Shown here piece after piece: positions 1 through 26,547 of a stretch of 64,000 nucleotides of DNA. The position numbers were made by a program, and so were the translations under genes. The notes below the pieces were generated by a model. It ran no database searches, was not told the origin of the DNA, and worked only from the letters and a program-made list of their open reading frames with translations. Within the stretch, counting starts at the first letter, position 1. Each line of letters opens with the position of its first letter. The stretch is from Syntrophales bacterium (GTDB lineage Bacteria; Desulfobacterota; Syntrophia; Syntrophales; UBA2210): positions 608,001-672,000 of the forward strand of contig CAXXNF010000001.1 of NCBI GenBank assembly GCA_963666365.2. The letters run 5' to 3'.

Positions 1-750
1 AATCGCATTGGCCACCAATTCCTTCCCCGTTCCGCTTTCACCCCGAATCAACACGGTGGCATTGCTCTTCGAAACCTGACCGACCAGTCCGTAGACTTCC
101 TCCATCCCCTTCGATTTGCCGATAATATTCGCCGGATGAAACCGCTCCTTCAATTCATTTTGAAGACGCAGATTCTCCTGAATCAGTATTTCGCGTTCCT
201 CCTGGTTCTCCTGGCGAAGCCGCACTGCCTGTGCGACCATGGAGGCGATTAGGGAAAGAAGCCTCACATCCTCCTTGAGCGTTATTGATTCTTCAAAAAG
301 ACGGTCCGCGCTCAGCGCACCGATGACCTCCGTTCCGATCTTGACGGGAACACAGATGAAGGATATATCCTTTTTTTTCAAACCTTTACGCGAGCCCGTT
401 CGATCGAGGAACTGGGGTTCCTCGGATATGTGGGGCACAATAACCGGCTGACCCGTTTCAACAACCTTGCCGATCACCCCTTCTCCGATCTGGTAGCGTC
501 CTCTCTTCTTCTGCATTTCCGAGAGACCGTGGGCGGCTTCAATCGATATTTCCCCGGTGCGCCTGTTGAGAAGGGCCAGCATTCCCCGGGTCATTCCCAT
601 CTGTTCGGCCAGAGCGTTCAGGAGGGGCCCCACTACCTCCCGGAGATCCATACTCCTCCCGAGCGCTTTATTAACCTCCCATAGAAGCGATAGTTCCTTT
701 ACCTCTCGATTGACTTTCGGTTCGTTTATAGTGGCTGCCTTTTTTTCCAT
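1..750 (-). CDS. NifA-like sigma54-dependent enhancer-binding protein (GAF + AAA+), runs off the left edge of the window
   Basis: Manual translation from ATG at 750 (absent from the ORF track): MEKKAATINEPKVNREVKELSLLWEVNKALGRS...AAHGLSEMQKKRGRYQIGEGVIGKVVETG...FICVPVK... (NifA-type GAF), then IIGKSKGMEEV...ATVLIRGESGTGKELVANAI (sigma54-activator Walker A). Confidence 0.93.
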   Translation of the reverse strand, partial: MEKKAATINEPKVNREVKELSLLWEVNKALGRSMDLREVVGPLLNALAEQMGMTRGMLALLNRRTGEISIEAAHGLSEMQKKRGRYQIGEGVIGKVVETGQPVIVPHISEEPQFLDRTGSRKGLKKKDISFICVPVKIGTEVIGALSADRLFEESITLKEDVRLLSLIASMVAQAVRLRQENQEEREILIQENLRLQNELKERFHPANIIGKSKGMEEVYGLVGQVSKSNATVLIRGESGTGKELVANAI

Positions 751-793
751 CGCCTGTTTCCTTTGTTTACATGCAGTATCGTCGTATTATTTG

Positions 794-815
794 ATAATCG
801 ACTTTTTGAGAAATC
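794..815. repeat. 22-bp element, exact reverse complement of 43151-43172
   Basis: ATAATCGACTTTTTGAGAAATC vs GATTTCTCAAAAAGTCGATTAT. Confidence 0.85.
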
Positions 816-830
816 CGCCTTGGCAAACAC

Positions 831-865
831 TGTCACACTACCACATTGTGGGAATTCTATCAAAT
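831..865. promoter_or_regulatory. Putative enhancer (UAS) for the NifA-like activator
   Basis: TGTCACACTACCACATTGTGGGAATTCTATCAAAT; contains TGT-N10-TCA (one mismatch to the NifA TGT-N10-ACA site) and aligns with 26637-26672. Confidence 0.6.
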
Positions 866-1031
866 GGGCATCGCAGCCGGATCCATTATTTTTACAAAGG
901 CAAAATAACACCAAATTGTAATATTCTATTATTATCAGTACTATTATGTAGCTTTTATTGGTAGCAATATTTCACACAACATACTATTATTATTATATTA
1001 TATTAAATATTTATATGTTTATTTCGGGATA

Positions 1032-6167: not shown

Positions 6168-6217
6168 TCAGCGTGCCTGTAATCGGCGCGCAACTAAATA
6201 GAGGAGTAAAAGGTAGA

Positions 6218-6871
6218 ATGAATTCCGAACACAGAGAGGACCTGTCAGTATTTTTAACGCCGACCTTTACCATCGAATCGGCCCATGAAACCATCGTGGA
6301 ATGTGCACACAACGTAACGGATACGTGCAAAAGCGACGCCGAAAAAGCCGTAAAGCTTTTCTATTTTGTGCGAGACTCGATCCGCTACAATCTCTTCATG
6401 ATTTCGGTATTTGAAGAAGATTTCAAGGCATCACGGATCCTTGAATGGGGAAAGGGGTATTGCGTGCAAAAGGCCGTCCTTCTCACCGCATTGGCCCGTG
6501 CTGCCGGAATTCCCGCGAGAATGGCCTTTGCACAAATAAGAAATCATCGTGTTCCTGAACATATTGTCCAGAAAATGGGGTCGAATATATTCCCCCGCCA
6601 CGGGTATAATCAGTTTTTCCTGAATGGACGGTGGATCAGTGCCGCTGCCACCTTCGACAAGGGACTCTGCGAAAAGAACGGCCTGCCGACGGTTGAATTC
6701 GACGGCACGTCAGATGCCATTCTGCCTGAAAAAGACTTGCAGGGAAGGCCCTATATCGAATATCTCGAAAAATTTGGCGCCTACGACGACCTTCCGTTTG
6801 AATGGATCGCCAGTATTATTTCAGAGCGTGTAGGCAAAGATAAGCGTCCCTGGCTCACAAGGGAAGGATAA
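6218..6871 (+). CDS. Transglutaminase-like domain protein
   Basis: LFYFVRDSIRY, GYCVQKAVLLTALARAAGIPAR (catalytic Cys), HGY; start set after the upstream purine-rich RBS region. Confidence 0.85.
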   Translation: MNSEHREDLSVFLTPTFTIESAHETIVECAHNVTDTCKSDAEKAVKLFYFVRDSIRYNLFMISVFEEDFKASRILEWGKGYCVQKAVLLTALARAAGIPARMAFAQIRNHRVPEHIVQKMGSNIFPRHGYNQFFLNGRWISAAATFDKGLCEKNGLPTVEFDGTSDAILPEKDLQGRPYIEYLEKFGAYDDLPFEWIASIISERVGKDKRPWLTREG

Positions 6872-6882
6872 GCGGACATTTC

Positions 6883-7692
6883 ATGACAAAGGATGAACGC
6901 AATTCAGTTACTGCATGGTTTGAAGAGTATGTCGATCTGTTCCGCGGCAGAGACGGGACATTACCTCCAGCGCTCGAATTGAAGCGGGAGCACAGCCTGA
7001 GGGTTGCCCACAATGCTCGGCTCATCTCAGAGACACTGAACATGCCCGAAAGAGAGCGATATCTTGCCGAAAGCGCCGGTCTGGTGCATGACGTGGGCCG
7101 CTTTCTTCAATTTAAAAATTACGGATCATTTCGGGACGTCGATACCGTCGATCACGGCGCCGAGGGGCGAAGGGTCCTGGAAGCTCATGCTCATTCATCT
7201 ATTCTCGACCCCGAAGAGCGAACCACGCTTTATTGCGCCGTGGCATTTCACAATCGCAACCAAAAAGATATTCCTCAGGATCTTACGGAGGGGCAGCGCA
7301 GGTTGCTTCATCTCATTCGAGATGCCGACAAGCTCGACATTCTGGAGCTTGTATTAAATTCTCTCGACGCTGACGGATTCCTCGAACTTCCCCAAATGCT
7401 GCCCCATATCAGACTGGATGGAACGGCAAGTCCCGCCGTACTTGATGAAGCCCTGACAACCCGATCTGTTTCGATGGGAGCACTTTCCTCTCTTGCTGAT
7501 TTTCTCGTGATGCTTGCGACGTGGTTTTACGACCTGAATTACGGACCTTCTCGAGAACTCGCCTATCAGAGAAATATTTTCCCCCGCCTTAGACAAAAGC
7601 TGCCCGATGAAGACGGCATAAATAAGCTCTTTTCGGACATTGACGAATTCACATCCACGTCTCGTAAAGAGTGGGTACACAACACCAACTGA
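6883..7692 (+). CDS. HD-domain phosphohydrolase
   Basis: KREHSLRV, LVHDVGRF, DHG, FHN, IRDADKLD. Confidence 0.87.
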   Translation: MTKDERNSVTAWFEEYVDLFRGRDGTLPPALELKREHSLRVAHNARLISETLNMPERERYLAESAGLVHDVGRFLQFKNYGSFRDVDTVDHGAEGRRVLEAHAHSSILDPEERTTLYCAVAFHNRNQKDIPQDLTEGQRRLLHLIRDADKLDILELVLNSLDADGFLELPQMLPHIRLDGTASPAVLDEALTTRSVSMGALSSLADFLVMLATWFYDLNYGPSRELAYQRNIFPRLRQKLPDEDGINKLFSDIDEFTSTSRKEWVHNTN

Positions 7693-7705
7693 AAGGATGT
7701 AATGT

Positions 7706-8098
7706 ATGAACAGTGATACGGCAACAATGATAAAGGAACTATGGGAGCAGCATGACGGCCCCATAGTGTTCAGCACCGTTGACAGAGCAGGCGTTCCGAA
7801 CGCCATATACGCAAGCTATGCAAAGCTGCTTGATGATGGAAAAATCGTCATCGCCGACAATTATTTTGACAAAACCAGGGCCAATATCAAAAACGGCAGC
7901 AAAGGCTCGGTGTTGTTCATCACAAAGGACATGAAATCCTATCAGGCAAAGGGACGCATCGAATATCTGACCGAGGGACCGGTCTATGAGGACATGCGTG
8001 CATGGGTGGATGAGAAGCATCCCCGTGTCGCCGCAGCAGTAATGTCGATAGAGGAACTGTACGCGGGATCGGAAAAACTGCTGTCACAGAAAATGTAG
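7706..8098 (+). CDS. Pyridoxamine 5'-phosphate oxidase-like FMN-binding protein
   Basis: FSTVDRAGVPN, IADNYFDKTRANI, SYQAKG. Confidence 0.85.
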   Translation: MNSDTATMIKELWEQHDGPIVFSTVDRAGVPNAIYASYAKLLDDGKIVIADNYFDKTRANIKNGSKGSVLFITKDMKSYQAKGRIEYLTEGPVYEDMRAWVDEKHPRVAAAVMSIEELYAGSEKLLSQKM

Positions 8099-8160
8099 GA
8101 ACCGGGCAAGAGGTTGCAGGTGTGGGAAATCCTGCCGCTTCGCCGCAGCAAGGCAATCCA

Positions 8161-9495
8161 ATGGCACATGAAGCATACCAGGTCGTAATCATCGGATCGG
8201 GTCCGGCGGGGCTTTTTGCAGCATTACGGCTTGAGCGGCTTGGGATAAAACGAATCGCCGTAATCGACCGGCATCCCTATCCCGCCGGTGGTCTTCTCAA
8301 TGACGGGAAGCTGAATTTCGATCATCGCATCGGCATAGATCCGGCAGAACTCGCCCTCAATCTTACACACACCCTTGATCTTATTGGGGAAGTTAAAGCT
8401 GTCTTTACCGGTTTTCCTCAATGCCGTCAGGTGACGGTCGTCGACAACAATGCAAGAATCAAGTCCCTGAAAAATATTGCGCAGGAGAACGGTGTCGAAT
8501 TCATTGCGCCGGAACAGTGGCACTGGGGTACCGATCAGGGAAAAGCGGTAGTAGATTACCTGAGGAATCTGCTCAAATCGACATCACTTATTCTGGGAAC
8601 GGAAGTGACAGCTATTGAACATGATGGCGGCACCAGTTTCCGCATCAGGGGAGCAACGAAGGGACGCACCCCTGTTTCCTACACGGCGGAGGCGGTTCTC
8701 GCCGCCCCGGGACGAAGCGGCGCCTATTGGTTCCGCGATGTGGCGGACAGTCTCGGAATCCATCATACATTCGGTCCCATCGATGTGGGCATACGTTTTG
8801 AGTTGCAGAAAATATTCTATGACGCCGTTACCGATGTCGTCTACGACCCGAAATTTATCTTTCATACCGCCCGTCACAACGACAGGGTGCGCACGTTCTG
8901 CACAAACCCGGGCGGAAGGGTCCGGGTGGAGCATTATCTTAATTTCAAACTGATAAACGGGGATGCCCTTTCAAACCGGAAAACGGCAAATACGAATTTC
9001 GCCCTCATCAATACGGTCGCCCTCACAAAACCCTTTTCCGACACCACCGAATACGGACGCATGATTGCCCAACAGTTCCATCTTCTGGGGGGCGGCGCAC
9101 CGATTGTGCAGCGGGTGGGAGATTTCAGAGAGGGAAGGAGAAGCGCTTCAGCAACATTTAACAGCCGAACCCGCCATTTCGAATCGCTCACGCCCTCGTA
9201 CCGCGCCGTTCCCGGAGACATCACGCTCGGCATGCCGGCCCGGATAATCGACAACCTCTGGGAATCACTAAAAACACTTGACAAGATAGTGCCGGGCATC
9301 CTCCACCCCTCCAGCCTCATGTACGCGCCGGAAATCAAATTTTTCGATACCCGCTTTCCCACCGGCACGCATCTGGAGACGAATGTGGAAGGCATGTTCG
9401 TGGCCGGCGACGGCACGGGAAAAAGCCGCGGCATAGTGGGAGCGGCCATATCAGGAATCATCGCGGCACAGGGCATCGCGAAAAGATGCGGTTGA
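8161..9495 (+). CDS. FAD-dependent oxidoreductase (uncharacterised family)
   Basis: IIGSGPAGLFAA Rossmann motif, RTFCTNPGG, C-terminal AGDGTGKSRGI. Confidence 0.85.
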   Translation: MAHEAYQVVIIGSGPAGLFAALRLERLGIKRIAVIDRHPYPAGGLLNDGKLNFDHRIGIDPAELALNLTHTLDLIGEVKAVFTGFPQCRQVTVVDNNARIKSLKNIAQENGVEFIAPEQWHWGTDQGKAVVDYLRNLLKSTSLILGTEVTAIEHDGGTSFRIRGATKGRTPVSYTAEAVLAAPGRSGAYWFRDVADSLGIHHTFGPIDVGIRFELQKIFYDAVTDVVYDPKFIFHTARHNDRVRTFCTNPGGRVRVEHYLNFKLINGDALSNRKTANTNFALINTVALTKPFSDTTEYGRMIAQQFHLLGGGAPIVQRVGDFREGRRSASATFNSRTRHFESLTPSYRAVPGDITLGMPARIIDNLWESLKTLDKIVPGILHPSSLMYAPEIKFFDTRFPTGTHLETNVEGMFVAGDGTGKSRGIVGAAISGIIAAQGIAKRCG

Positions 9496-9976
9496 CGCGT
9501 ACTGGAATGAAGAAGAACGGATTTTCGCGCAGGGGCGCTGGGAACAAGTGGAAACAAAAAAATGTTTTTCCTCTGCGCCTTGGCGTCTTGCGGGAGAAAA
9601 TAAATACGGTGCTTAGAAGTCCAAACAACAAACTGTATGAAACGACTTCGTAAAAACTCCAGAGGCAAGGCGGGCGAATCAGCAGTGTTTCGGGCGCCTG
9701 CCGTCGATACCCAACTGCCGGATTTCCCCCCATACAAGACCGATACTTTGTCCCTATTGACTCATTACCGATTTTTTTATATGGCGACCATCGGTGGGGT
9801 TGAACTGAATTTTACACCTTAAGATTCGCTCAAACCAACGTCTTCGCCATCCCTCTCGAAGGAAGTCGCAGGGAGAGAAAACGGGCAATGGATGGTGTGC
9901 GACGCCGTTTCCCCGCCAGGGATACGTTCTTTATAATATCGGGCTTGTGCATATAACCAATAAGGGAGGTTACAGC

Positions 9977-11482
9977 ATGAATATCGCACAATTAGCGGTA
10001 CAGGGAATCGAAACGTACGGGGAACACGTAAGCGTCGTGTTCGAAGCAAAGGAAATCACCAATGTAGAGATGGACCTTGCAGCCCGGAAACTGGGAAACG
10101 CTCTCAGGAACCTGGAAGTGACCCGTGGCGACAGGGTCATCCTGCAGATGCCGAATTGCCCTGAGGTACTTCAGGCTTTTCAGGCCGTCTGGAAAATCGG
10201 CGCCATTGTGATCCCTATCAACTACATGGTGGGAGAAGAAGAAATCGCCTATATTTACCGGGACTCCGGTGCGAACACCGTCATCACGTCACCCCTGTAT
10301 CTGCCCAAGGTTCAGGCGGCCATGACCACGTCGCCGGGCATCAAAAACGTTATTGTCGTGGCGCCCGAAGCGCCCGAAGGCACGCTGTCCTATGGGAAAC
10401 TCATTGAAGGGAGCTCCGATGAACTGGAGATGGTTGAAACCGAAAATGACGACATAGCCGCGCTCGTCTATACTTCGGGAACAACGGGGCAGCCCAAAGG
10501 GGTCATGCACACACATTTCGGACTTTACTCAAACGCAAAGGCGCAATGCGACTCAACCCCGTTTCCCCCCGACATGATCAGTCTTGCCGTGCTGCCCCTG
10601 TGCCACTCCTACGGCATCGCCGTTATGAACGGGGCGTTTCTGCGGGGAAAGAGCAAGACCATCGTCCTGCCGTCGGTGGACCTGGAAAAAATGTTTTCAT
10701 CCATCGAAAGGTACAAGATCGAATCGGTGGCCGCCGTGCCCACGATTTATGTGTACATGCTCCTCTATCCCGACGCCGGCAACTATAACGTAAGTTCTGT
10801 GAAATACTGGACGACCGGTTCGGCGCCCCTTGCCTATGAAACCTGGAAAGAGTTCAAGGAAAAATTCGGCGGCGAGATCACCGAGGGATGGGGGTTGACG
10901 GAGGCCGCGGCAAATAACACCATCAATCCTTATGACGAAAGAAAAAAACTCGGCTCCATCGGTCTTCCCATGAAGGGCATCGAGATGAGGATTTTCGACG
11001 ATGACGACAATGAACTGCCGCCGGGGAAAGAGGGGGAAATCGTCATTCGAGGTCCCATGGTCATGAAGGGGTACTGGAACAAACCGGAGGAAACGGCGGA
11101 TGTGATCAGAAACGGGTGGCTCCATACGGGCGATGTGGGATATGTCGATGAGGAGGGTTTTTTCTTCATTACCGACCGCAAGAAGGACATCATCATCAAA
11201 GGGGGCGAGAACATATCCCCCCGGACAATCGAAGAAGTCCTCTATCAGTATCCCAAGGTGTCGGAAGCCGCCGTCATCGGCATCAAGGATCCTGTCTACG
11301 GTGAAGACATCAAGGCCTTCGTGACGCTAAAGCCGGGAGAAACCGCGACCGTGGAAGAAATTATGGAATTCTGCACCAAAAACCTCAAGAGATTCCGGGT
11401 TCCCAAAGAGCTTGTGATTATGGACGCCCTTCCCAAGAACCTGGTGGGAAAAATCCTCAAGAAAGAATTGCGGAAGCTGTAA
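9977..11482 (+). CDS. Long-chain fatty acid--CoA ligase (AMP-binding enzyme)
   Basis: YTSGTTGQPKG, GWGLTE, WLHTGD, DRKKD, GKILK; GGAGG RBS. Confidence 0.93.
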   Translation: MNIAQLAVQGIETYGEHVSVVFEAKEITNVEMDLAARKLGNALRNLEVTRGDRVILQMPNCPEVLQAFQAVWKIGAIVIPINYMVGEEEIAYIYRDSGANTVITSPLYLPKVQAAMTTSPGIKNVIVVAPEAPEGTLSYGKLIEGSSDELEMVETENDDIAALVYTSGTTGQPKGVMHTHFGLYSNAKAQCDSTPFPPDMISLAVLPLCHSYGIAVMNGAFLRGKSKTIVLPSVDLEKMFSSIERYKIESVAAVPTIYVYMLLYPDAGNYNVSSVKYWTTGSAPLAYETWKEFKEKFGGEITEGWGLTEAAANNTINPYDERKKLGSIGLPMKGIEMRIFDDDDNELPPGKEGEIVIRGPMVMKGYWNKPEETADVIRNGWLHTGDVGYVDEEGFFFITDRKKDIIIKGGENISPRTIEEVLYQYPKVSEAAVIGIKDPVYGEDIKAFVTLKPGETATVEEIMEFCTKNLKRFRVPKELVIMDALPKNLVGKILKKELRKL

Positions 11483-13564: not shown

Positions 13565-13715
13565 CGATATCCCCGATATATAAAGGGCGCCATCTGTCGC
13601 CCATCTCTTGGAAACAGTTCTTCATATACTGGTTGCGTGAACAAAATGCAAAATATTTGGTGAACTGGAAGAACAGTCATTTCATACCGAAGCTGCCCGG
13701 GGAAACCCGGCGTTG

Positions 13716-16700
13716 CTACCTGTGAAAACAGATCACCTTCCGGTGCACTACATCGGCCATAATTTTTAAGTCAGCGCCGGCTACATCATATACGCCGATC
13801 ACATCTCTGTAGGCAGCGTAATCAGGCGCCAGTTCTTCCAGCTTGTTGGCAAAACCGGAAAGCCAATTGACATTGAAGCGAACTCCCTTATTGCCGGGGA
13901 AAACAGCAAGATAAAATATGCCTGTTTCCACCAGATCCTGGAAAAAATGCGTGCCGTAAGAAAGCTCGGGCATCAGGTTACCCATTGCATAGGCGATTTC
14001 TCCCAATACGCTTATGTTATTGATATCCGAAAACCGCACGGGCACTCCCAGCGAAGGAGTGGTCGACCCCCATCGTCCCGGTCCCAGAAGCATGACGGGA
14101 AGTTCACTCCTATCGGAGATCCGTCGGTTAAGACGGCCGATACAACGGGCGATATCGTGTTTCTGCGACAGTGAAAGTTCAGTATACTCCTTCGGATTGA
14201 CGTAGACAATTCTAAGGATCCGTTCTGAAATACTGCCGCCGAAGAAATTCCCTTCAAACTCGAAAAATATCCTGTCCATGGCCATTTTGCCGGGCAATTC
14301 CACCCTCTTCTCCTGCCCGATTGTCTGCAGGGGACGACACTGGAGAAGGTTAATCTTGAACTCATCCTTTCCGGAAAAATTTACCGTAAATTCCGTATCG
14401 ACGGGATATTGATAAATGGTCTCCAGTTTTTTCATCATGTTCTGCATGGTTCGGGCATAGGAAGAACGGGACAGTAATTCATCGAAGGTGATGATCCATG
14501 CCTCCTGATCTTTGATGCCCTGTTCCCGAATTCTCTCGTTTATCTCATGATCTCGCACGGCGATGAGGTCCAGATTTATCTCAAGCTGCTGCCCCATGAG
14601 ATTGAGCACGGAGATTGTCTCCAGCTCGCTTTTTTCCAGATTGAGCACATCCACTTCCCTTTGCGAAAATCGGCGCGTGTCTTCCATGCCGGCATGAGGC
14701 TTCTGTAATGGCGCATCGAGCGCTACAATGCGGGGATAATCTCCCTCGACACGATTGACGGCGCGGGTCCCCAGCCCCAACACGAGCCTGAGCATGCCCG
14801 CCTCGGGAATCATGTCCTTTTTCCAGGTAAAAATATTGTAGGACATGCCCACACCCGCCATATCAGGGAAGAAGTAGTGTTTGTGATGAGAACCGGAAAC
14901 CCGTTGCACCAGAAGGGCCATCTGTTCATCAATCTCGGAGAGCCCCCGCTGCAGGCGGTAGGTCAACGCATCTACATTCATGGTGCTGGCGTAAATGGCG
15001 CGCACCGCCTCTTCGAAGGTGTGGTACCGCTCTTCCGGCGATCCCTGGTTCGGCAGGAATATGCTGTCGTATTTTCCAGCAAAGGCATTGCCGAAATTGT
15101 CTTCCAGAAGACTGCTCGATCTGACGATTATGGGAGATTGGCCGAAATATTCAAGCATCCTCATAAACTGATCCTTGATTTCGTCAGGGAATATTCCTGT
15201 TTTCATCTTTTCTCTCAGTACCTGCGCTTTTTCGAAGTAGCCCCCCTTCGTCTTCTGATCCATGCGAAGGCGCCACCAGCCATTTTGCACCAGGTAGGTG
15301 TAGAATACGTCGGACCCGACATAGAACGAATCGTGGGCTTCGAGTTGACTGCGCCAGTCGAAGAGTTCGTCCTTTTCAAGGATTCTTCGAGCCATCAGCA
15401 TACCGACCGATTTACCCCCCACATAGCCGGTTCCGATCAGGCGCTCGCGAATTCTCAGCAGGTCCTCAAGAGAAAAATTCTCTTTTACCAGCATGGCCAT
15501 CCGCGGATCCCTGGTGATCATAATCTTGCAGATCCTGTCGATCATTTCCTCTTTCCGCACAGTTTCCCAGGGCTTTTCAAGAAGCTCCTCCGCATCGATA
15601 AAGAGGCGGTCCCAATAGTCAAGGCTCAATTCGCCTTTTTCGGTTCTTCGAAGGGAAAGTTCCGAAAAGAGTTTCGCTGCATCTACACTGTTGATGATCG
15701 GCACAAACCCCTCGTGTTCCTTCACATGGGGAAGGAACATGGTCGGCGAGTACCGCTGCCACACCTTCAGTGGATGCACATAGAGTTTGTTTCTGGCAGT
15801 GAATACATCGAGCAGGAGCTGTGTCGTTTCACGAATTCTGGCCACAGTTTGAAAGGCATGACTCTCACGGATCAGGGCAAAGTAGGCAATGGTGTTCAGC
15901 TCGAAAAGGTAGGGACAGGTGATGACAAAAAAATTACCGATCATCAAGTCGGTAGCCCATTCCGAAAGAAGATTCGACAGACAATCGAACACATAATAGA
16001 CACCGTCCCCCTCTTTGGTGACGATGTTGTATACTTCGGTGGAAAAAGATTCAAAACCGTTTCGAGGGTCGACACGGTACAGGATTACTCTCTCATCGTC
16101 CACCATTGGTTCGTGGTCCGCAAACCGGATATAGACGACCCTTTTATCATCCTTGAGCGCCGATTGCACAAAAAGGCCGGCGAAGTACCTGTAGTCCGCA
16201 AGATCATCAACCTGCCAGACCACATTGTCGCCAAGTCTGAGGCTGTCGATTACACCGTCGAAGGAGGCAATGCCCGTCGATACGGGCTGGGCGCTCTTGT
16301 TTCGCTCACGCTGCAGGCGCTGCCGCTCTTTCAAAGAAAACTCCTTCTCATCCTCTTCCTGCTGGCACGCACGCACGACCTGGGATATCATGGACGCAAT
16401 GATGGAGAGAAACCGCAGATCTTCCTGAAGCATCGACTCTTCGGCATTCTCCCTGTCGGCACTCAGCGTTCCCACCACTTCGTTCTGTACCTTGACGGGC
16501 ACACAGATGAAGGCAATATCTCTCGCGCCGAGATTCTTCCGCACACCGGTGCGGTCGAGAAACCTCGGGTCCTCCTCAACACGAGGCACTACCATCGCCT
16601 CACCCGTCTCAACCACCATTCCGATAATTCCTTCGCCCCTGCTGTATCGACCACGCTTCTTTTGAACTTCAGAAAGACCATGGGCCGCCACAATGGAAGT

Positions 16701-16895
16701 TTCGCCGGACCTGCGGTTTACCAGTGTCAGAATACCCCGTTTCATCCCCATAGTGTGCATGGTCCGCAAAATGGGATTGCCTATCTTATCTAACTCCCCG
16801 CTTCTTCCCAGCTTACGACTTATCTCCCACAGCAGCGACAGTTCCTGTGCATCCCTCTTCGACGGGAACTGTCCGTCCATATCGTCAGTCTTCAT
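13716..16895 (-). CDS. GAF domain + PEP/pyruvate-binding (PEP synthase-like ATP-grasp) fusion protein
   Basis: N-terminal NifA-type GAF; central STGIASFDGVI...GDNVVW segment; ATP-grasp motifs GGKSVG, VRSSSLLED, FAGKYDS, LLVQRV, GLGTRAV, DTEF, LLQCRP; C-terminal GPGRWGS...SYGTHFF. Confidence 0.88.
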   Translation of the reverse strand: MKTDDMDGQFPSKRDAQELSLLWEISRKLGRSGELDKIGNPILRTMHTMGMKRGILTLVNRRSGETSIVAAHGLSEVQKKRGRYSRGEGIIGMVVETGEAMVVPRVEEDPRFLDRTGVRKNLGARDIAFICVPVKVQNEVVGTLSADRENAEESMLQEDLRFLSIIASMISQVVRACQQEEDEKEFSLKERQRLQRERNKSAQPVSTGIASFDGVIDSLRLGDNVVWQVDDLADYRYFAGLFVQSALKDDKRVVYIRFADHEPMVDDERVILYRVDPRNGFESFSTEVYNIVTKEGDGVYYVFDCLSNLLSEWATDLMIGNFFVITCPYLFELNTIAYFALIRESHAFQTVARIRETTQLLLDVFTARNKLYVHPLKVWQRYSPTMFLPHVKEHEGFVPIINSVDAAKLFSELSLRRTEKGELSLDYWDRLFIDAEELLEKPWETVRKEEMIDRICKIMITRDPRMAMLVKENFSLEDLLRIRERLIGTGYVGGKSVGMLMARRILEKDELFDWRSQLEAHDSFYVGSDVFYTYLVQNGWWRLRMDQKTKGGYFEKAQVLREKMKTGIFPDEIKDQFMRMLEYFGQSPIIVRSSSLLEDNFGNAFAGKYDSIFLPNQGSPEERYHTFEEAVRAIYASTMNVDALTYRLQRGLSEIDEQMALLVQRVSGSHHKHYFFPDMAGVGMSYNIFTWKKDMIPEAGMLRLVLGLGTRAVNRVEGDYPRIVALDAPLQKPHAGMEDTRRFSQREVDVLNLEKSELETISVLNLMGQQLEINLDLIAVRDHEINERIREQGIKDQEAWIITFDELLSRSSYARTMQNMMKKLETIYQYPVDTEFTVNFSGKDEFKINLLQCRPLQTIGQEKRVELPGKMAMDRIFFEFEGNFFGGSISERILRIVYVNPKEYTELSLSQKHDIARCIGRLNRRISDRSELPVMLLGPGRWGSTTPSLGVPVRFSDINNISVLGEIAYAMGNLMPELSYGTHFFQDLVETGIFYLAVFPGNKGVRFNVNWLSGFANKLEELAPDYAAYRDVIGVYDVAGADLKIMADVVHRKVICFHR

Positions 16896-16909
16896 GAAAC
16901 GAATCTCCT

Positions 16910-19900
16910 TTATTCCTTCTTATATATTTCCTGCAGCGATTGTACAGATAATGATCCCTTCCTCAACACGCCGATCGCGTTCACCATTGCTCCGGCGGCC
17001 GAAACAGTGGTTACGATTGGAATGGCATGATCGATGGCACTGCCTCTGATCCGTATCTCGTCTCTACGGGGTTTGGGACCGCTCGGCGTATTTATCACAA
17101 GCGCCACGGTTCTGTTTTTAATGTAATCAAGAATATTGGGCCGTCCTTCGTCGAGCTTCGGAAGCTTCGTTACCGCTATGGCGTGATCCCTGAACAGTTC
17201 CGCCGTACCCGGGGTGGCCAGGATCTCAAATCCCATATCGGCAAACTGCCTGCCTATGGGCAGAATGGCATGCTTGTCATAATCCTTGACACTGATAAAC
17301 ACACTGCCCTTGAGGGGAACATCCTGTCCTGCAGCAATTTGGCTCTTTCCGAAGGCTACCCCCAAATCGGGATCATGCCCCATCACCTCTCCCGTCGATT
17401 TCATTTCCGGACCCAGGAGGGTGTCGGCACCTGCAAATCGGCTGAAAGGAAGGACCGACTCCTTGACGGCAAAATAGCGCGGCATCGGATCGTCCTTAAT
17501 TCCCTGCTCCTTCAGCGATATGCCCGCCATCACTTTGGTGGCGACCTTTGCCAGGGGAACCCCTGTTGCCTTTGATACGAACGGCACTGTTCTCGACCCG
17601 CGCGGATTGACCTCCAGTACGTAGATTTCGTCATCCTTCACGGCGTACTGTACATTGAGAAGTCCCTGAACCCCCAGCTCAAGGGCCATGCGCCGCGTTT
17701 GATCCTTGATTGATGCGATCAGCTCCCCGCTCAGGGAGTAGGCAGGAAGCACCATGGCGCTGTCTCCCGAGTGAATGCCCGCGTGCTCTATATGCTCCAT
17801 GACGCCCCCCACGATCACATGGCAGCCGTCGCCCACGGCATCCACGTCTATCTCTATGGCGTCTTCCAGAAATTTGTCGATGAGGATCGGGTGATCGGGC
17901 GATGCCTTGAAGGCCTCCCGTACAAAACCTTCCAGATCGGCCCGGCTCCAGACGGTGACCATGGCCCGTCCTCCCAGCACATAGGAGGGACGGATAAGGA
18001 CGGGATACCCGATTCGTTCGACAATGGATTCCACTTCCTCGAAAGTGCGAGCCGTGCCGCTTTCGGGCTGCCGAATATTGAGTGTGTCCACAAGCTCCTT
18101 GAAGAGCTGCCGATCCTCGGCCCGGTCGATCGCCTGCGGAGACGTCCCCAGTATCCGCACTCCCCGCACCGCAAGCGGCACGGCGAGATTCAGCGGCGTC
18201 TGGCCGCCAAGCTGCACGATGACCCCTTCCGGCTTTTCTTTTTCGATAATATTCAGCACATCTTCCAGCGTAAGGGGCTCGAAGTAGAGCCGATCAGATA
18301 TGTCGTAATCGGTGGACACGGTTTCGGGATTGGAGTTCACCATAATCGTCTCGTATCCCAGTTCCCGCAATACCATGGAGGCATGGACACAGCAGTAATC
18401 GAACTCTATCCCCTGGCCGATTCTGTTGGGACCGCCCCCGATAATCATGATCTTCTTTTTCTCCCCTCCGCGACTTTCATCCTCCTCGGCATAAGTGGAA
18501 TAGAAGTAAGGGGTGTAGGCCTCGAATTCGGCAGCGCAGGTATCGACAAGTTTGTAGACGGGCACAATCCCCGCCTCTTTTCTCCGCCGTCTCACTTCAT
18601 CCTCCGAGGACCCGATAACTGCGCCGATCTGGCGGTCGGAAAACCCGCACTCCTTTACCCGTCTCATCAGGTCCCGGGGCACACTCTCCAGGTCCCCGCA
18701 TGCGGCCAGCTCCTGTTCCGTTTCAATAATTTCCTGAATGTTGTCCAGAAACCAGGGGTCGATCCCCGTAAGCTCGGCGACTCGCTCCAGGGGCATTCCC
18801 TTTTCGAGGGCGTGACGGACATAGAAAAGTCTCTGCGGCGTGGGACGGGAAAGCAGGGCCACACCATAACTTTCAAAATCAATGGCATCGTCGGGTAGCT
18901 TTTCGAGACCGCCAAGACCGATCTCCAGTCCGCGGAGCCCCTTCTGCAGGGCCTCCTTGAATGTTCTCCCGATGGCCATGGTCTCGCCCACCGATTTCAT
19001 CGATATGGTAAGGGTATCGTCGGCGCCGGGAAACTTTTCAAAGGCGAAACGGGGTATCTTGACCACACAGTAGTCAATGGCCGGCTCAAAGGAAGCGGGC
19101 GTCTTTTTTGTAATATCGTTTGGAATCTCGTCGAGGCTGTATCCCACCGCCAGCTTAGCGGCTATTTTCGCGATGGGAAAGCCCGTGGCCTTCGATGCCA
19201 GCGCCGACGATCGCGAGACCCGGGGATTCATCTCGATCACTGCGATGCGGCCGTTTTCGGGGTGAACAGCGAACTGAATATTCGATCCCCCCGTGGCCAC
19301 GCCTATCTTTCGGATTACGGCGGCGGAGGCGTTCCGAAGCTGCTGATATTCCCTGTCCGTCAGAGTCTGGGCCGGAGCCACCGTAATTGAATCTCCCGTG
19401 TGGACCCCCATGGGATCAAGGTTCTCGATGGAGCATATAATCACGACATTATCCTGCTGATCCCGCATTACCTCGAGTTCGTATTCTTTCCAGCCAAGGA
19501 CGGATTCCTCAATGAGGATCTCGCCGATCATGCTCTGCTCGATCCCCCGATTGGCGAATTCCTCAAACTCCTCGGCATTGTAGGCCAGCGCGCCACCGGT
19601 CCCCCCCAGGGTATAGCTCGGTCTGATGACAAGAGGAAACCCGATGTCATGGGCAATGGCCCGCGCTTCGTCCATGCTATGGGCGACTTCGCTCAGCGGC
19701 GTCGCAAGACCGATTTCGGCCATGGCGGCCTTGAAGGAATCACGATTCTCGGCGCGTTCGATCGCCGCGATGTCGGCGCCGATCATCTCGACGCCGTACC
19801 GGGCAAATACGCCTCTTTCGGCCGCCTTGACGGCCGTATTGAGCGCTGTCTGTCCTCCCAGGGTGGCGAGCACGGCATGAGGCCGCTCTTTTTCGATAAT

Positions 19901-20128
19901 CTTTTCAAGAACCTCCGTCGTGATCGGTTCGATATAGGTATGGTGCGCCATGTCGGGATCAGTCATTATAGTGGCGGGATTCGAATTCAGCAGCACTACC
20001 TCATAGCCTTCTTCGATCAGTGCCTTACAGGCCTGTGTTCCGGAATAGTCGAACTCGCAGGCCTGGCCGATGACAATGGGACCCGATCCTATTATCAATA
20101 TTTTTTTTATATCCTCGCGTTTCGGCAT
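16910..20128 (-). CDS. carB: Carbamoyl-phosphate synthase large subunit
   Basis: [30 protein letters not shown], duplicated ATP-grasp domains, MGS domain. Confidence 0.98.
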
Positions 20129-21753: not shown

Positions 21754-22845
21754 TCATTGTTCACTTCTCTTCTTCATAGATTCGACAAAATCACTGAAGA
21801 GCGAACGGGCATCATGGGGACCGGGTCCCGCTTCGGGATGAAACTGCACCGAGAACACCGGCAGTACTTTGTGCCTGATTCCTTCCAGAGTTCCGTCATA
21901 AAGATTCACATGGGTTACTTTGATCACGTTTTTGTCAAGCGAATGTTCATCCACACAAAATCCATGATTCTGAACGGTAATATGAATTTTCCCCGTCGCC
22001 CTATCCTTGACGGGATGATTGCTTCCGTGGTGCCCGAATTTCAATTTATAGGTCTTTCCCCCCAGTGCCAGCCCCATGAGCTGGTGTCCCAGACAGATCC
22101 CGAAAAGAGGAACGTTCCCTTCGTTGATCAGCTCCCGAACCGTTTCCACCGCATAGGTGACGGCGGCCGGATCACCGGGACCATTTGACAGGAGCACGCC
22201 GTCGGGATTCAGTCGCATGATTTCATCAGCCGTGGCCCTCGCATTGAGCACGGTGACACGGCAGCCCGCTTCCTGGAGAAGCTGCAGGATGCTGGATTTC
22301 ACGCCGAAGTCGAGTACCGCTACCAGGGGACCTCCCTGCCGCCCAAGTTCGTAGGCATCGGGCGAACTGACCTCCCTTACCAGATCACGGCCCACAAGCC
22401 CCGGCGTCTTCTTCGCCCTTTCGACAAGCACCGCCGGATCGCTTTCGCGCGTCGATATGACGGCCCGCATGGCGCCCGCCTCCCTGATGTGTCTCGTCAG
22501 CGCCCGCGTGTCGACGCCGCAGATACCGGGTACGTCATGTTCCCTCAACAAGGAGTCCAGATCGCCGGAGGATCTCCAGTTACGCGCCCTGCGGCTCAGC
22601 TCACCGATCACGAACCCTTCCAGCCAGAGAGCGCGAGACTCATTGTCCTGATCATTCACACCGTAGTTGCCGATCAGAGGGTAGGTCATGGCGACAATCT
22701 GTCCCTTGTAGGACGGATCCGTCAACACTTCCTGGTACCCCGTCATGCCGGTATTAAAGACGATCTCTCCGCTCCGTTCGCCGGCGGCGCCAAAGGATGC
22801 ACCTTCAAAATACCTTCCGTCTTCCAGCGCAAGAATTGCTTTCAT
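21754..22845 (-). CDS. carA: Carbamoyl-phosphate synthase small subunit
   Basis: FNTGMTGYQE, SNGPGDP, GICLGHQ, QFHPE. Confidence 0.97.
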   Translation of the reverse strand: MKAILALEDGRYFEGASFGAAGERSGEIVFNTGMTGYQEVLTDPSYKGQIVAMTYPLIGNYGVNDQDNESRALWLEGFVIGELSRRARNWRSSGDLDSLLREHDVPGICGVDTRALTRHIREAGAMRAVISTRESDPAVLVERAKKTPGLVGRDLVREVSSPDAYELGRQGGPLVAVLDFGVKSSILQLLQEAGCRVTVLNARATADEIMRLNPDGVLLSNGPGDPAAVTYAVETVRELINEGNVPLFGICLGHQLMGLALGGKTYKLKFGHHGSNHPVKDRATGKIHITVQNHGFCVDEHSLDKNVIKVTHVNLYDGTLEGIRHKVLPVFSVQFHPEAGPGPHDARSLFSDFVESMKKRSEQ

Positions 22846-22914: not shown

Positions 22915-24345
22915 CTATGTGGCGGCTTCGCCGAACCGTTCCTTATCGAAGTTCTTTGGCGTCGCCGTGGGATAGTCCCCGGTAAAACAGGCCCTGCAAT
23001 AGGCCGATCCGTCATTGACTGTTTTCAGCATCCCCTCCACTGAAAGGTAGGCCAGCGAATCGGCTCCCAGATATCTCCTTATCTCTTCTACACTATGAGA
23101 TGCGGCAATGAGTTCTTTGCGGTTCGAAATATCGATCCCGTAGTAGCAGGGATGGATCACGGGCGGGGAGCTTACCCGCACATGCACTTCCACGGCTCCT
23201 GCATCGCGAATCAGATGGATCAGCTGTCGCAAGGTGGTGCCTCTCACTATTGAGTCTTCAACCACTACCACACGTTTCCCCTTCAGCACACCGGAAACGG
23301 TGTTGAATTTAATCTTTACATCGAGGTCCCGCTCGTGCTGGTGCGGCTCGATAAAGGTTCTTCCCACGTAGTGATTTCGTATCAGACCGATCTCAAAACG
23401 AATTTTCGCCGTTCGCGCATATCCCAGTGCTGCCGTGTTGGCGGAATCGGGAACGGCGATCACAAGATCGGCGTCGCAGGGCGCCTCTTTTGCCAGCGTT
23501 GTGCCAAGCTTCCTTCGTATTTTATCCACCTTGTCGCCAAATATGATACTGTCCGGTCTCGAAAAGTATATAAACTCGAATACACAAAAGGACCGTGACG
23601 GCGCTTCCTGAAGATGGATCGAGGAGACTCCCGATTCATCTATGGAAAGAATTTCTCCCGGCGCCACCTCCCTGATATATTGAGCATTTATAATATCGAG
23701 GGCACAGGACTCGGAGGCCACCACATACCCGCCGTTGATTTTACCGACACACAATGGTCTGAAGCCGCGGGGATCCCGCACCGCAATTACTTTTGACGGA
23801 GTAAGAAAAACAAAACTGTAGGCCCCTTCTATTTTTTCCAGAGAATCGGCAATCATTTCCTCGATGGGGCCCTTTTTGGACCGCGCAATCAAGTGGAGCA
23901 CAATTTCACTGTCCGAGGTCGTCTGAAAAATCGATCCTTCTTCTTCCATCCACCTTCGCAGTTCAGCGGCATTGACCACGTTTCCATTGTGAGCGGCCGC
24001 AATTTTCCCGCCCTTGAAACGAATAAGTATGGGTTGCGCGTTTTCAAGCCCCGAGAGACCCGTGGTCGAATACCGGTTATGACCGATAGCGGAACACCCC
24101 GTCAGCGTATCCAGCACATCGCTTCCGGCAAAGACCGCAGACACCAGCCCCATACCTTTGTGAAGTGAAAGAGTGCATCCATCGGATGCAGCGATGCCTG
24201 CGCTCTCCTGTCCCCGATGCTGCAGGGAGTAAAGCCCCAAATATGTTTTGCGCACCGCTTCTTTATCACCGAAGATGCCGAATACGGCGCAGCACTCTTT
24301 GATACCGCCGTGCGTCTCGTGACAGGCCTCGTGGTAGCAGGGCAT
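22915..24345 (-). CDS. purF: Amidophosphoribosyltransferase (Fe-S type, with propeptide)
   Basis: KECCAVFG N-terminus, QHRGQESAG, HNRYST, VVVEDSIVRG PRPP motif, Fe-S Cys (FCVFE, PCYYG, YCRAC). Confidence 0.96.
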   Translation of the reverse strand: MPCYHEACHETHGGIKECCAVFGIFGDKEAVRKTYLGLYSLQHRGQESAGIAASDGCTLSLHKGMGLVSAVFAGSDVLDTLTGCSAIGHNRYSTTGLSGLENAQPILIRFKGGKIAAAHNGNVVNAAELRRWMEEEGSIFQTTSDSEIVLHLIARSKKGPIEEMIADSLEKIEGAYSFVFLTPSKVIAVRDPRGFRPLCVGKINGGYVVASESCALDIINAQYIREVAPGEILSIDESGVSSIHLQEAPSRSFCVFEFIYFSRPDSIIFGDKVDKIRRKLGTTLAKEAPCDADLVIAVPDSANTAALGYARTAKIRFEIGLIRNHYVGRTFIEPHQHERDLDVKIKFNTVSGVLKGKRVVVVEDSIVRGTTLRQLIHLIRDAGAVEVHVRVSSPPVIHPCYYGIDISNRKELIAASHSVEEIRRYLGADSLAYLSVEGMLKTVNDGSAYCRACFTGDYPTATPKNFDKERFGEAAT

Positions 24346-25542: not shown

Positions 25543-26427
25543 CTACTCCTCAGGGAGAGGCGCAAGCCCCTCGTATACCCAGGAAATTATTCCGCTGAGC
25601 CATACGTCGCTATAATAGGAATTTTGATCACGAAAGCGGACGGAAAGTTCACCACCGGCCACCTCAACCGTCAGAGATTCCGCCGTTGTGCCGCCTATCA
25701 TCGTAGCCGCAATGGCCGATGCAACAATGCCGGTGCCACAGGCCAGCGTCTCCCCCTCTACACCCCGCTCATAGGTGCGTACACGGATTCTGTCGGGTCC
25801 CACAATTTCGACAAAATCCACATTTGCGCCCCTGGGACTGAAAAGGGAGTGAAAGCGGACTTCTCTTCCGATTTCCCGTATGTCGTCATCCCGAACCGCC
25901 ATCAACGGTCCTTTTAATACGGACGCATCCTCCGCATCTTTCATGAATATGACAGCGTGAGGGACTCCGGAATCGATAAAATGGAAGGGAACTACCCTGC
26001 CTCGTTCCAGCGTAATGATACGTCCTCCCTCGCTCTTTTGAACATCGGTCAGCTTGATCGACACATTCTTTTCGTCTACAAGCGCTTCTATAATTCCGGC
26101 AAGGGTTTCGAATTTAAGGGGGGAACCGGCGATGTTCCGTTCAAGTGCAAAGGCCGCGGCGCATCGCGCTCCGTTTCCGCACATCTCCGCTTCGCTTCCG
26201 TCTGCATTAAAAATCCTCAGGTTGAAATCCGCCTGATCAGACGGTCCAAGCACAAGTATGCCGTCAGCGCCGATTGAACGGCGTCGTTCGCACAACTGAC
26301 GGGCGCATAAGTACCATGCAATATCAAACTCACCGGACATATTATCCACTACAATAAAATCGTTTCCATGACCGGACATCTTTGAAAAAGAAAGGTGCCC
26401 CGGTTCGCTGTGCCACATCATCTTCAT
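25543..26427 (-). CDS. dapF: Diaminopimelate epimerase
   Basis: KMSGHGNDF, GADG, EMCGNGARC, GVPH, TYERG, TLACGTG. Confidence 0.95.
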   Translation of the reverse strand: MKMMWHSEPGHLSFSKMSGHGNDFIVVDNMSGEFDIAWYLCARQLCERRRSIGADGILVLGPSDQADFNLRIFNADGSEAEMCGNGARCAAAFALERNIAGSPLKFETLAGIIEALVDEKNVSIKLTDVQKSEGGRIITLERGRVVPFHFIDSGVPHAVIFMKDAEDASVLKGPLMAVRDDDIREIGREVRFHSLFSPRGANVDFVEIVGPDRIRVRTYERGVEGETLACGTGIVASAIAATMIGGTTAESLTVEVAGGELSVRFRDQNSYYSDVWLSGIISWVYEGLAPLPEE

Positions 26428-26531: not shown

Positions 26532-26547
26532 AGCAATATCAGTGCCA
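26532..26547 (-). promoter_or_regulatory. sigma54 (-24/-12) promoter of the dapF...carB operon
   Basis: Reverse complement reads TGGCAC-TGATA-TTGCT, a perfect consensus, about 105 nt upstream of dapF. Confidence 0.85.

Follow-up and report, generated by a model that had tools for sequence, protein, structure and literature searches.

The last gene of a biosynthetic operon in the 64 kb stretch of DNA analysed here (the window) encodes a protein, P0001, which on balance is probably a sensor-gated, ATP-dependent, histidine-mediated phosphotransferase of an uncharacterised family, placed at the GDH/glutamate node of nitrogen metabolism. The assimilation of ammonium is controlled by one of the best-studied regulatory networks in bacteria, yet this family, which has thousands of members and whose genes occur within gdh, gltBD, glnA, amtB-glnK, and carAB clusters, has no assigned function. 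The GAF-fused form found here is its most informative member, because its sensor domain is the same as that of the local nitrogen activator, which names a likely input and thus provides an experimental handle in the form of ligand-dependent activity. Should GDH or a metabolite of the glutamate node prove to be the acceptor, nitrogen assimilation would gain a new point of control, either post-translational or metabolic, in syntrophs, sulfate reducers, planctomycetes, clostridia, and methanogens.

The domains of P0001 and the features that surround its gene are listed in Table 1. The Pfam scan of the protein recovered a GAF domain at residues 35-174 and PPDK_N at 491-866, with no match to PEP-utilisers_N, PF00391, or the PEP-utilizers_C barrel (PF02896), which confirms the absence of the pyruvate/PEP barrel noted in an earlier, sequence-only reading of this DNA. 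The ten motifs quoted in that reading were all located, six in the GAF part (ELSLLWE 18-24, AAHGLSE 70-76, QKKRGRY 78-84, FLDRTG 112-117, FICVPVK 129-135, and LSADR 144-148), two in the KaiC-like part (STGIASFDGVI 206-216 and GDNVVW 222-227), and two near the C-terminus (GPGRWGS 938-944 and SYGTHFF 979-985), which lies 76 residues past His983.

Table 1. Coordinates (in the window) of P0001, its domains, and the surrounding genes and signals.
Feature	Position	Strand	Basis or remark
P0001 ORF, 1059 aa, ATG start	13716..16895	-	GAF + KaiC-like + ATP-grasp + C-terminal His domain
GAF sensor and helical linker, residues 14-206, paralog of activator GAF	16278..16856	-	Pfam GAF/GAF_2, BLASTP, trees
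KaiC/RecA-fold domain without Walker A, residues 207-416	15648..16277	-	Structure comparison, Foldseek
Helical connector, residues 417-455	15531..15647	-	DSSP of model; boundaries read from aligned ranges
PPDK_N-type ATP-grasp, residues 456-866	14298..15530	-	Pfam, structure comparison, invariant columns
C-terminal domain, residues 867-1059, with GPGRWG 938-943 and His983	13719..14297	-	Model, conservation
His983 codon (GTHFF), candidate phospho-acceptor	13947..13949	-	Conservation and domain model
RBS AGGAG, 9 nt before P0001 ATG, within 14-nt gap	16905..16909	-	
Terminator-like hairpin, ~115 nt past P0001 stop	13585..13602	-	Consensus scan only
carB	16910-20128	-	Pfam, NCBIfam equivalogs
guaA	20139-21764	-	Pfam, NCBIfam equivalogs
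carA	21754-22845	-	Pfam, NCBIfam equivalogs
purF	22915-24345	-	Pfam, NCBIfam equivalogs
dapL (LL-DAP aminotransferase)	24350-25540	-	Pfam, NCBIfam equivalogs
dapF	25543-26427	-	Pfam, NCBIfam equivalogs
Perfect sigma54 -24/-12 element TGGCACTGATATTGC, upstream of dapF	26533..26547	-	1 of 3 perfect matches
Activator (NifA family), N-terminal 250 of 521 aa	1..750	-	Rest before window start
Second sigma54 element	1032-1046	+	
amtB	1069-2319	+	Downstream of second sigma54 element
P-II gene	2331-2669	+	After amtB

The ATP-grasp domain, already described as complete from the sequence, is intact. It matches PF01326 (PPDK_N) with 177 bits (E 6.5e-52) over positions 3-319 of the 328 of the profile, and contains the motifs GGK 494-496, VRSSSLLED 591-599, FAGK 605-608, DTEFT 833-837, and QCRP 852-855, while GGK, RSSS..ED, GK, E636, and QCR (core numbering) are invariant in all 50 family members aligned. 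In the structure comparison, this domain superposes on the rifampin phosphotransferase (RPH) 5hv1 with Z 27.3 (rmsd 2.7, 295 residues aligned) and on the PEP synthase 2ols with Z 25.5, the RPH ATP domain (5hv6_A) matches residues 257-658 of the model with Z 23.4, and Foldseek links P0001 to RPH at E 1.7e-13. The ATP-grasp fold and the catalytic motifs are common to P0001 and to PEP synthase and PPDK, whereas P0001 has no barrel and no recognisable canonical mobile domain.

The C-terminal domain (190 aa, model pLDDT 94.1) is the candidate carrier of the phosphoryl group. His983 is invariant in two alignments of the family (50/50 and 66/66 members), as are GPGRW, E966, and S979 in the second, and the local motif, G-T-H in P0001, is G-[ST]-H across the family. 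In the model of the domain, this histidine is the first residue of a helix (124-132) that is followed by a strand, which is the layout of the TSH-type phosphohistidine domains. The best structural match of the isolated domain is a DRTGG domain (Z 6.1), with the carrier domain of PPDK at Z 5.3 and the His domain of RPH (763-867) at Z 5.2, and the phosphohistidine domains of PPDK, RPH, EI, and pyruvate kinase are within the top 16 of 48,161 chains (Z 4.9-5.3). The assignment to the swivel domains is weak, given that the best hits of unrelated structures typically reach Z 7-8 with this tool. Pfam returned nothing for the domain at E<=10, PF00391 included, Foldseek nothing at E<=1e-3, and a profile search of the PDB sequences two chance matches alone (E 0.49 and 0.75). 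The GTHFF histidine of the sequence-only reading has thus held up as an invariant residue, while the swivel domain in which it was placed is not recovered by profile and persists as a weak likeness of fold. The whole model aligns from end to end with RPH 5hv2 (model 225-860 against chain -4..867) and, over residues 267-860, with residues 14-466 of PEP synthase, through its His domain, as judged from the aligned ranges only.

The segment between the GAF and the ATP-grasp has the fold of the KaiC/RecA-superfamily ATPases (KaiC CII, FlaH, and PH0284, Z 19-22), as had been suspected. Matches to KaiC CII reach Z 20-22 over model residues 1-217 (about 190-208 residues aligned), one of them with Z 22.0 and an rmsd of 2.6 over 193 residues, and Foldseek supports the likeness at E 1.4e-9, while Pfam found no match to the domain at E<=10. 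In contrast with the KaiC ATPases, the family conserves GDNVVW and FDCLS rather than the Walker A motif (G....GK[ST] or [AG]....GK[ST]), which is absent from this domain in 50 of 50 members, and the domain is therefore unlikely to hydrolyse ATP.

The GAF domain is a paralog of that of the activator at the start of the window, with 106 identities in 194 positions (55%, E 4e-68) by BLASTP, which upholds the likeness noted earlier while lowering the hand count of about 60%. A set of 27 activators has 42 columns with a conservation of 90% or more, of which the GAF of P0001 retains 37, and this GAF also matches Aquifex Nlh1 (4g3k) and A. vinelandii NifA (9qq6), each with an E of about 1e-19. While the GAF is common to P0001 and the NifA/Nlh-type sigma54 activators, P0001 has no AAA+ or DNA-binding domain, and its output would be an enzyme rather than transcription; the Pfam scan found no Sigma54_activat domain in P0001, and the NifA model TIGR01817 scores 113.7 bits against a cut-off of 528.85, on residues 17-217 only. 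The 17 fused GAFs group in a single clade (SH-aLRT 100) that lies inside the activator GAFs of the order. Three subclades are common to the GAF tree and the tree of the core, both of which are quick trees with SH-aLRT as their measure of support, and 11 long-branch rows other than GAF activators were left out of the final GAF trees. A recent copy from the activator of the same genome, the possibility that a GAF phylogeny had been proposed to address, was rejected (AU p=0.0012), and the trees instead indicate one old fusion event followed by at least two losses. The NifA GAF is reported to bind 2-oxoglutarate (PMC12998190), and certain NifA GAFs are reported to act via P-II instead (PMC3854208). 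By analogy, 2-oxoglutarate is probably the ligand of the GAF of P0001.

A number of known enzymes provide points of comparison. The “short dikinases” that lack the PEP barrel, RPH (PDB 5hv1/5hv3), the HpeI subunit (9goj), and Cj1418, whose domain layout we take to be of this type, share with P0001 the PPDK_N ATP-grasp, a C-terminal domain with a single conserved His, and the absence of the pyruvate/PEP barrel, and P0001 differs from them in its N-terminal additions, the KaiC-fold and GAF domains. Unlike RPH, P0001 has no rifampin-binding domain, and the RPH equivalog NF041857, which has a cut-off of 999, gives 27.7 bits, on residues 556-666 only. The C-terminal domain of P0001 is about twice the size of a swivel domain and is undetectable as one by profile. 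According to PMC10971088, Cj1418 of C. jejuni is an L-glutamine kinase, an example of how enzymes of this kind, formerly annotated as PEP synthase, can phosphorylate a nitrogen metabolite.

A further parallel is PtsP (Enzyme I-Ntr), which, like P0001, joins a GAF domain to a His-phosphotransfer enzyme (a candidate one in P0001) of the PEP-utiliser world, with a link to nitrogen status. According to PMC13104625, the PtsP GAF binds glutamine and alpha-ketoglutarate, tuning autophosphorylation. The likeness of the two GAFs is weak (18.3 bits for the PtsP model, E 0.0067 for the PtsP GAF structure 3trc), and P0001 is an analogue of PtsP in its logic, not a member, because its donor would be ATP via the ATP-grasp rather than PEP via a barrel, it has no Enzyme I core, another protein of the genome is PtsP-like (776 aa, L143:481-2811) and has PEP-utilisers_N, PF00391, and PF02896, and no HPr, a possible acceptor, was found in this genome, which is 94% complete. 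The architecture had been taken as unrecognised, which has to be qualified, given that PtsP is a characterised analogue of the combination of GAF and phosphohistidine enzyme, and that the core without the GAF is a huge family.

This core (KaiC-like, PPDK_N, and His domains, ~860 aa) is found in at least 12 phyla, with 3717 representative clusters matching it at E<=1e-3 and identities of 50-60% between phyla. The 120 listed relatives cover 99-100% of residues 200-1059 with 48-98% identity, and relatives are annotated publicly as “PEP/pyruvate-binding domain-containing protein” (about 862 aa) or “phosphoenolpyruvate synthase”; literature searches found no paper on the core family. The survey of neighbourhoods suggested earlier revealed a strong nitrogen linkage. 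Of the 80 core loci, which come from 12 named phyla, 51 have one or more nitrogen-assimilation genes (GDH, GOGAT, GS, P-II, AmtB, NrpR, CPS, or CTP synthase) no further than 8 kb away, as against 5.5% of random places in one genome, that from which the window comes (G000). A strict gene set gives 46/80 against 1.7% of random places, with neighbour clusters named from one representative each. The context is heterogeneous, in that the other 29 loci have no nitrogen gene within 8 kb, which counts against the nitrogen reading.

The commonest neighbour of the core is GDH (24 loci), and the core gene is also found in gltBD, glnA, and carAB operons without GDH. A new observation is the adjacency to GDH of paralogs that share the ATP-grasp and C-terminal domains alone and have other, variable N-terminal regions. 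In 15 of 18 such loci, GDH lies within 1.5 kb, and it is on the strand of the paralog in all 17 that were scored (L145-L166); six of the 24 paralog representatives scanned carry a Pol-beta-type nucleotidyltransferase domain, and one locus is a gdh-X-metallophosphoesterase row. In 151 genomes of the order, GDH is present in 84 of the 88 with the core and in 29 of the 63 without it (hand cross-tabulation; Fisher p=2.5e-12, relatedness ignored). Given that the family travels with GDH and the ammonium-assimilation genes, it probably marks a point in nitrogen metabolism, either a step or a control, that is gated by a signal, and the GDH linkage over three architectures narrows the search for an acceptor. 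A point against placing P0001 at the GDH node is that its gene has no GDH neighbour in this genome or in its taxonomic family.

In the proposed mechanism, the ATP-grasp would bind ATP, the phosphoryl group would pass to His983, and the C-terminal domain would deliver it to an acceptor at the node formed by GDH and the glutamate, glutamine, and 2-oxoglutarate pools. The variable N-terminal region would be regulatory, consisting here of the GAF followed by the KaiC-fold domain. As the GAF appears to have been copied once, long ago, from the NifA-family activator of the lineage, with its conserved core retained, the same nitrogen/carbon signal (probably 2-oxoglutarate, if NifA and PtsP are a guide) would set both the transcription of the operon and the activity of P0001. 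The acceptor has close to an even chance of being a small nitrogen metabolite, which is preferred because the characterised enzymes known to us that are built on a PPDK_N-type ATP-grasp have small molecules or a glucan as their substrates; a protein acceptor is possible, at somewhat longer odds.

If the protein modifies other proteins, its His domain would phosphorylate GDH, or else another assimilation protein such as GS, GOGAT, or P-II, and anaerobes would thereby have a covalent switch with a role like that of GlnE on glutamine synthetase. The tight, same-strand pairing with gdh across architectures, the co-occurrence with GDH in the order, and the variable N-terminal regions, as expected of regulators, would fit this role, and the nucleotidyltransferase paralogs and the metallophosphoesterase neighbour resemble a writer/eraser set. 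We know of no PPDK_N-type enzyme with a protein acceptor, however, GDH is encoded on the other contig of this genome, and is likewise apart in its taxonomic family, and the operons that contain the core without GDH also count against this role, which is rather unlikely. More tentative still is the broader idea that the ATP-grasp and His domain form the catalytic centre of a so far unrecognised system, driven by ATP, that works as a partner of GDH, either a covalent GDH switch, with the nucleotidyltransferase and phosphoesterase variants as writer and eraser, or the phosphorylation of a GDH-node metabolite that couples ATP to ammonium assimilation, wired here to 2-oxoglutarate through the activator-derived GAF. 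With such a system, anaerobic bacteria and some archaea would have a new level of nitrogen control beside GS adenylylation and P-II signalling.

The relay through a phosphohistidine may itself be questioned, given that ATP-grasp enzymes are generally ligases, that the C-terminal domain has no significant match to the phosphohistidine domains, and that the prodigiosin ligases PigC and RedH are among the weak NCBIfam matches (36 and 28 bits). P0001 might then be a ligase or an ATP/AMP sensor, with a C-terminal domain that only binds substrate or partners, but this is improbable in view of the invariant His983 at the start of a helix, the aligned ranges with RPH (end to end) and with PEP synthase (through its His domain), and the PPDK_N type of the ATP-grasp, which to our knowledge always operates with a His carrier. 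It is far less probable that P0001 is a PEP synthase or PPDK of the usual kind that has gained a sensor, as the PPDK_N domain and the names given to its relatives might suggest, since the barrel and the PF00391 match are missing, none of the PEP synthase equivalog models exceeds 51.9 bits, where the cut-offs are 598 or higher, and the identity to the complete PEP synthase, barrel included, encoded elsewhere in the genome is 24% over 164 aa. An assembly chimera or a mis-called gene, a concern raised in the sequence-only reading in case homologs were missing, has a negligible chance, with no point found in its favour. The gene is a single open frame with its own RBS, the combination of GAF and PPDK_N recurs at ~1055-1061 aa in 14 of the 120 listed homolog clusters, on independent contigs of up to 248 kb, the fusion is also present in G147, another genome of the family, and at locus L013, and the GAF and core trees agree in their subclades.

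Like many members of its family, the gene of P0001 is encoded among genes of ammonium assimilation. As had been noted, it begins 14 nt after carB and closes a tight operon (gaps between genes of -11 to 69 nt) headed by the TGGCACTGATATTGC element, one of three perfect sigma54 elements in the window; only perfect matches are meaningful here, since sites with up to two mismatches are not enriched (66 against 58 expected). The term “NifA-type” stands as a family name, the 521-aa GAF-sigma54 activator scoring 542 bits against the TIGR01817 cut-off of 528.85, and not as a sign of nif control, because no NifH was found in the genome (best score 40.8 bits), and the TGT-N10-ACA sites of the window (8 against 8.3 expected) include none near either sigma54 promoter. 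The amtB, P-II, and activator genes lie 11-16 kb from the gene of P0001, with pyrG and gltBD-like genes just before the start of the window.

The protein P0001 combines a GAF domain (residues 35-174), a KaiC-like domain, a PPDK_N ATP-grasp (491-866, E 6.5e-52, positions 3-319 of the 328 in the Pfam profile), and a C-terminal domain bearing the histidine of the GTHFF motif (His983), in this order. The complete PPDK/PEP-synthase ATP-grasp described in the sequence-only reading was confirmed by this match and by its invariant motifs (GGK, RSSS..ED, GK, E, and QCR), as was the lack of the PEP/pyruvate-binding barrel, given that Pfam recovered no PEP-utilizers_C domain in P0001; all the motifs quoted in that reading were also found. 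Residues 200-490 and 867-1059 have no Pfam match. In NCBIfam, the N-terminus (17-217) matches the NifA model at 113.7 bits, against a cut-off of 528.85, and the PEP synthase, rifampin phosphotransferase (RPH), PigC/RedH, and PtsP models give only sub-threshold matches. The kinship with the neighboring NifA-family activator is evident in BLASTP, with 106 of 194 residues (55%, E 4e-68) identical to the activator fragment encoded at 1-750 on the minus strand.

An AlphaFold2 model of residues 200-1059, based on a 50-row alignment (pLDDT 88.6, pTM 0.84), places its residues 1-217 on the CII domain of KaiC (Z 20-22; 7s65_B, for example, with an rmsd of 2.6 over 193 aligned residues) and residues 257-658 on the ATP-binding domain of RPH (Z 23.4). 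The model scores Z 27.3 against RPH (5hv1) and 25.5 against PEP synthase (2ols), and Foldseek recovers both RPH (E 1.7e-13) and KaiC (E 1.4e-9). Walker A is lacking in all 50 of the family members aligned. The C-terminal domain, modeled alone from 66 rows (pLDDT 94.1), returned no Foldseek match at E<=1e-3, no profile match among the PDB sequences, and no Pfam match at E<=10. Its best score in the comparison with 48,161 chains was Z 6.1, for a DRTGG domain, followed at Z 4.9-5.3 by the carrier domains of PPDK (2fm4, 1vbg), the His domain of RPH (5hv1 763-867), Enzyme I (2wqd), and the C-domain of pyruvate kinase (2e28). Apical domains of chaperonins, cyclase, and RraA are also among the matches, and the folds concerned all fall into the swivelling beta/beta/alpha class. 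Since none of these scores reaches the level that the tool regards as meaningful, the modeled likeness to a swivelling fold is no more than a hint. Alongside GPGRW, E966, and S979, His983 is invariant; in the model it opens a helix that is followed by a strand.

The GAF-less part of the protein, the core of some 860 aa, forms a variant of its own in the dikinase superfamily. All 8000 of the candidates scored match the core, and the search of 50%-identity representatives recovered 3717 clusters at E<=1e-3, 879 of them also passing E<=1e-30; at least 583 core stretches were confirmed in species genomes. No paper on the family was found in the literature within reach of the search, which did not extend to preprint supplements or subscription journals. 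Homologs of 1459-1513 aa (P0005-P0017, Geobacter sp. OR-1, for example) are tandem forms, and P0005 has an extra unit of ATP-grasp and His domain ahead of a complete KaiC-like/ATP-grasp/His-domain unit. One Syntrophales genome contains the core gene in duplicate; the additional copy (G100:C20:1-2411) is fragmented, with 4-5 in-frame TGA codons in each fragment, and is probably decayed.

The survey of homolog neighborhoods that the sequence-only reading had proposed covered 80 loci from 12 phyla by label, including one archaeon, in which the ORFs within 8 kb were clustered and one representative per cluster was identified by Pfam. The most frequent neighbor is GDH (24 loci), followed by gltD (13), GAF-sigma54 activators (12), gltB (11), P-II and AmtB (10 each), NrpR (8), carA, archaeal-type GltB, and GS-I (7 each), carB and CTP synthase (5 each), and GS-III (4). 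At least one listed nitrogen gene, with sigma54 activators excluded, is present at 51 of the 80 loci, against 5.5% of 20,000 random places in the window's own genome (G000), and a strict gene set at 46, against 1.7%, with this single genome as the only control.

The nitrogen link is to GDH, and is a property of the catalytic core. Other architectures, of approximately 600, 780, and 1060 aa, have only the ATP-grasp and C-terminal domain in common with it, the last of these carrying a C-terminal Pol-beta-type nucleotidyltransferase (6 of the 24 representatives scanned). In one genome (G074, L144:6914-12364), a gene for GDH is followed after 33 nt by that for a 1070-aa protein (unknown N-terminus, PPDK_N, His domain, and Pol-beta nucleotidyltransferase) and, after another 56 nt, by a metallophosphoesterase gene, an arrangement suggestive of a writer/eraser set next to GDH. 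The 1070-aa protein was searched for in 301 genomes of the phylum, and 30 loci were taken with a flank of 1.5 kb each; this flank contains GDH at 15 of the 18 loci without the KaiC-like domain and at 6 of the 12 with it. The 17 GDH genes at L145-L166 all share the strand of the match and lie upstream of it in 15 cases. The GDHs beside the two kinds of locus are only 30-35% identical, so that two GDH subfamilies are involved. Within the order (151 genomes, counted by eye), the core matches strongly in 88 (best E<=1e-140) and GDH is present in 113. Of these 113, 84 belong to the 88 core-bearing genomes and 29 to the other 63 (Fisher p=2.5e-12, uncorrected for relatedness); the two genes are no more than about 7 kb apart in some 40 of the 88, also by eye.

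Mechanistically, P0001 is best modeled on the dikinases that lack the barrel: RPH and the glutamine kinase Cj1418, the latter formerly annotated as a PEP synthase (PMC10971088). The phosphoryl group would pass from ATP to His983 and then to an acceptor, and the GAF domain would gate the protein. As regards regulation, PtsP comes closest: its GAF domain reads glutamine and alpha-ketoglutarate and sets autophosphorylation (PMC13104625). The GAF domain of NifA binds 2-oxoglutarate (PMC12998190). A small-molecule acceptor at the GDH node is tentatively favored, at somewhat below an even chance, over a protein acceptor, which appears rather unlikely. The existence of the nucleotidyltransferase and phosphoesterase variants keeps protein modification alive as a reading. 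G000 has a complete PEP synthase elsewhere, as well as a PtsP-like GAF-Enzyme I of 776 aa (G000:C2:370572-372902; L143:481-2811). HPr/NPr (PF00381) was not found in this 94% complete genome, which would leave the PtsP-like protein an EI-Ntr with no known carrier.

The GAF fusion is real, single, and old, and represents a lineage-specific elaboration. GAF and PPDK_N occur together at 1055-1061 aa in 14 of the best 120 homolog clusters, on independent contigs, and the same fusion is found at the locus L013 and in a second genome (G147), which argues against the assembly chimera envisaged earlier. Among the matches listed for the 151 genomes of the order, P0001 is matched over its full length only in G000 and G147, both of the window's family. 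In the GAF tree (44 rows, with 11 long non-GAF rows left out), the 17 fused GAFs are split off by a single branch (SH-aLRT 100), and their clade sits inside the activators from families f1, f6, and f20. The recent duplication from the window's own activator was rejected, as holding this activator together with the P0001 subclade costs 36.1 log-likelihood units (AU p=0.0012). The GAF of the own activator shows 84% identity to the GAF of an activator from another family, compared with only 55% to that of P0001. In the core tree, one clade (SH-aLRT 99) contains all 15 fused proteins as well as 12 unfused ones, the latter 871-898 aa long. This tree requires three changes of fusion state, read as one gain and two losses, consistent with the one origin that the GAF tree indicates. 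Of 42 alignment columns conserved to at least 90% among 27 activators, P0001 retains 37. The losses include two columns of the linker to the AAA+ domain, both missing from every fused form.

Coordinates of features in the window
Feature	Position	Strand	Context
P0001 gene	13716-16895	minus	ORF, 1059 aa
Terminator-like hairpin	13585-13602		3' of the P0001 gene
Perfect sigma54 -24/-12 element TGGCACTGATATTGC	26533-26547		5' of dapF
Second perfect sigma54 -24/-12 element	1032-1046		5' of amtB and the P-II gene
Third perfect sigma54 -24/-12 match TGGCACCGCAATTGC	53489-53503	plus	
9-mer ATTGTAATA	915-923; 26597-26605		5' of the amtB and dapF sigma54 promoters
10-kb block	3681-11482	plus	between amtB/P-II and the P0001 operon
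Methyl-transfer cluster	26811-33038	plus	diverging from the sigma54 operon

The start codon of P0001 follows the carB stop by 14 nt, with AGGAG 9 nt upstream of the ATG, and the same-strand genes 5' of it are dapF, LL-diaminopimelate aminotransferase, purF, carA, guaA, and carB, with intergenic gaps of -11 to 69 nt. The three perfect sigma54 matches are the only ones in the 64 kb. Besides the 9-mer, which may be shared by chance because both regions are AT-rich, the regions upstream of the amtB and dapF promoters have no common same-strand word of nine or more nucleotides. The 521-aa activator scores above the NifA equivalog cut-off (542 vs 528.85 bits). As G000 (4.0 Mb, 94% complete) has no real NifH (best 40.8 bits), and neither promoter has a TGT-N10-ACA site, this activator, a member of the NifA family, regulates nitrogen assimilation or consumption and not nif genes. 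Searches by tblastn with the neighbor-cluster representatives located pyrG, gltD-like, and archaeal-type gltB-like genes at G000:C1:599717-605128, 3-8 kb before the window start and directly before the activator, which makes the entire stretch of 600-634 kb an island of nitrogen assimilation; GDH and GS-III of G000 sit on the other contig.

The 10-kb block encodes a PAS-histidine kinase-receiver hybrid and transglutaminase-like, HD, PNPOx-like, FAD, and acyl-CoA ligase proteins; L013 has no block of this type, and its two nitrogen units abut. The methyl-transfer cluster comprises a Met_synt_B12-like protein, MTHFR, two MttB-family methyltransferases, a pterin-binding protein, and a corrinoid protein.
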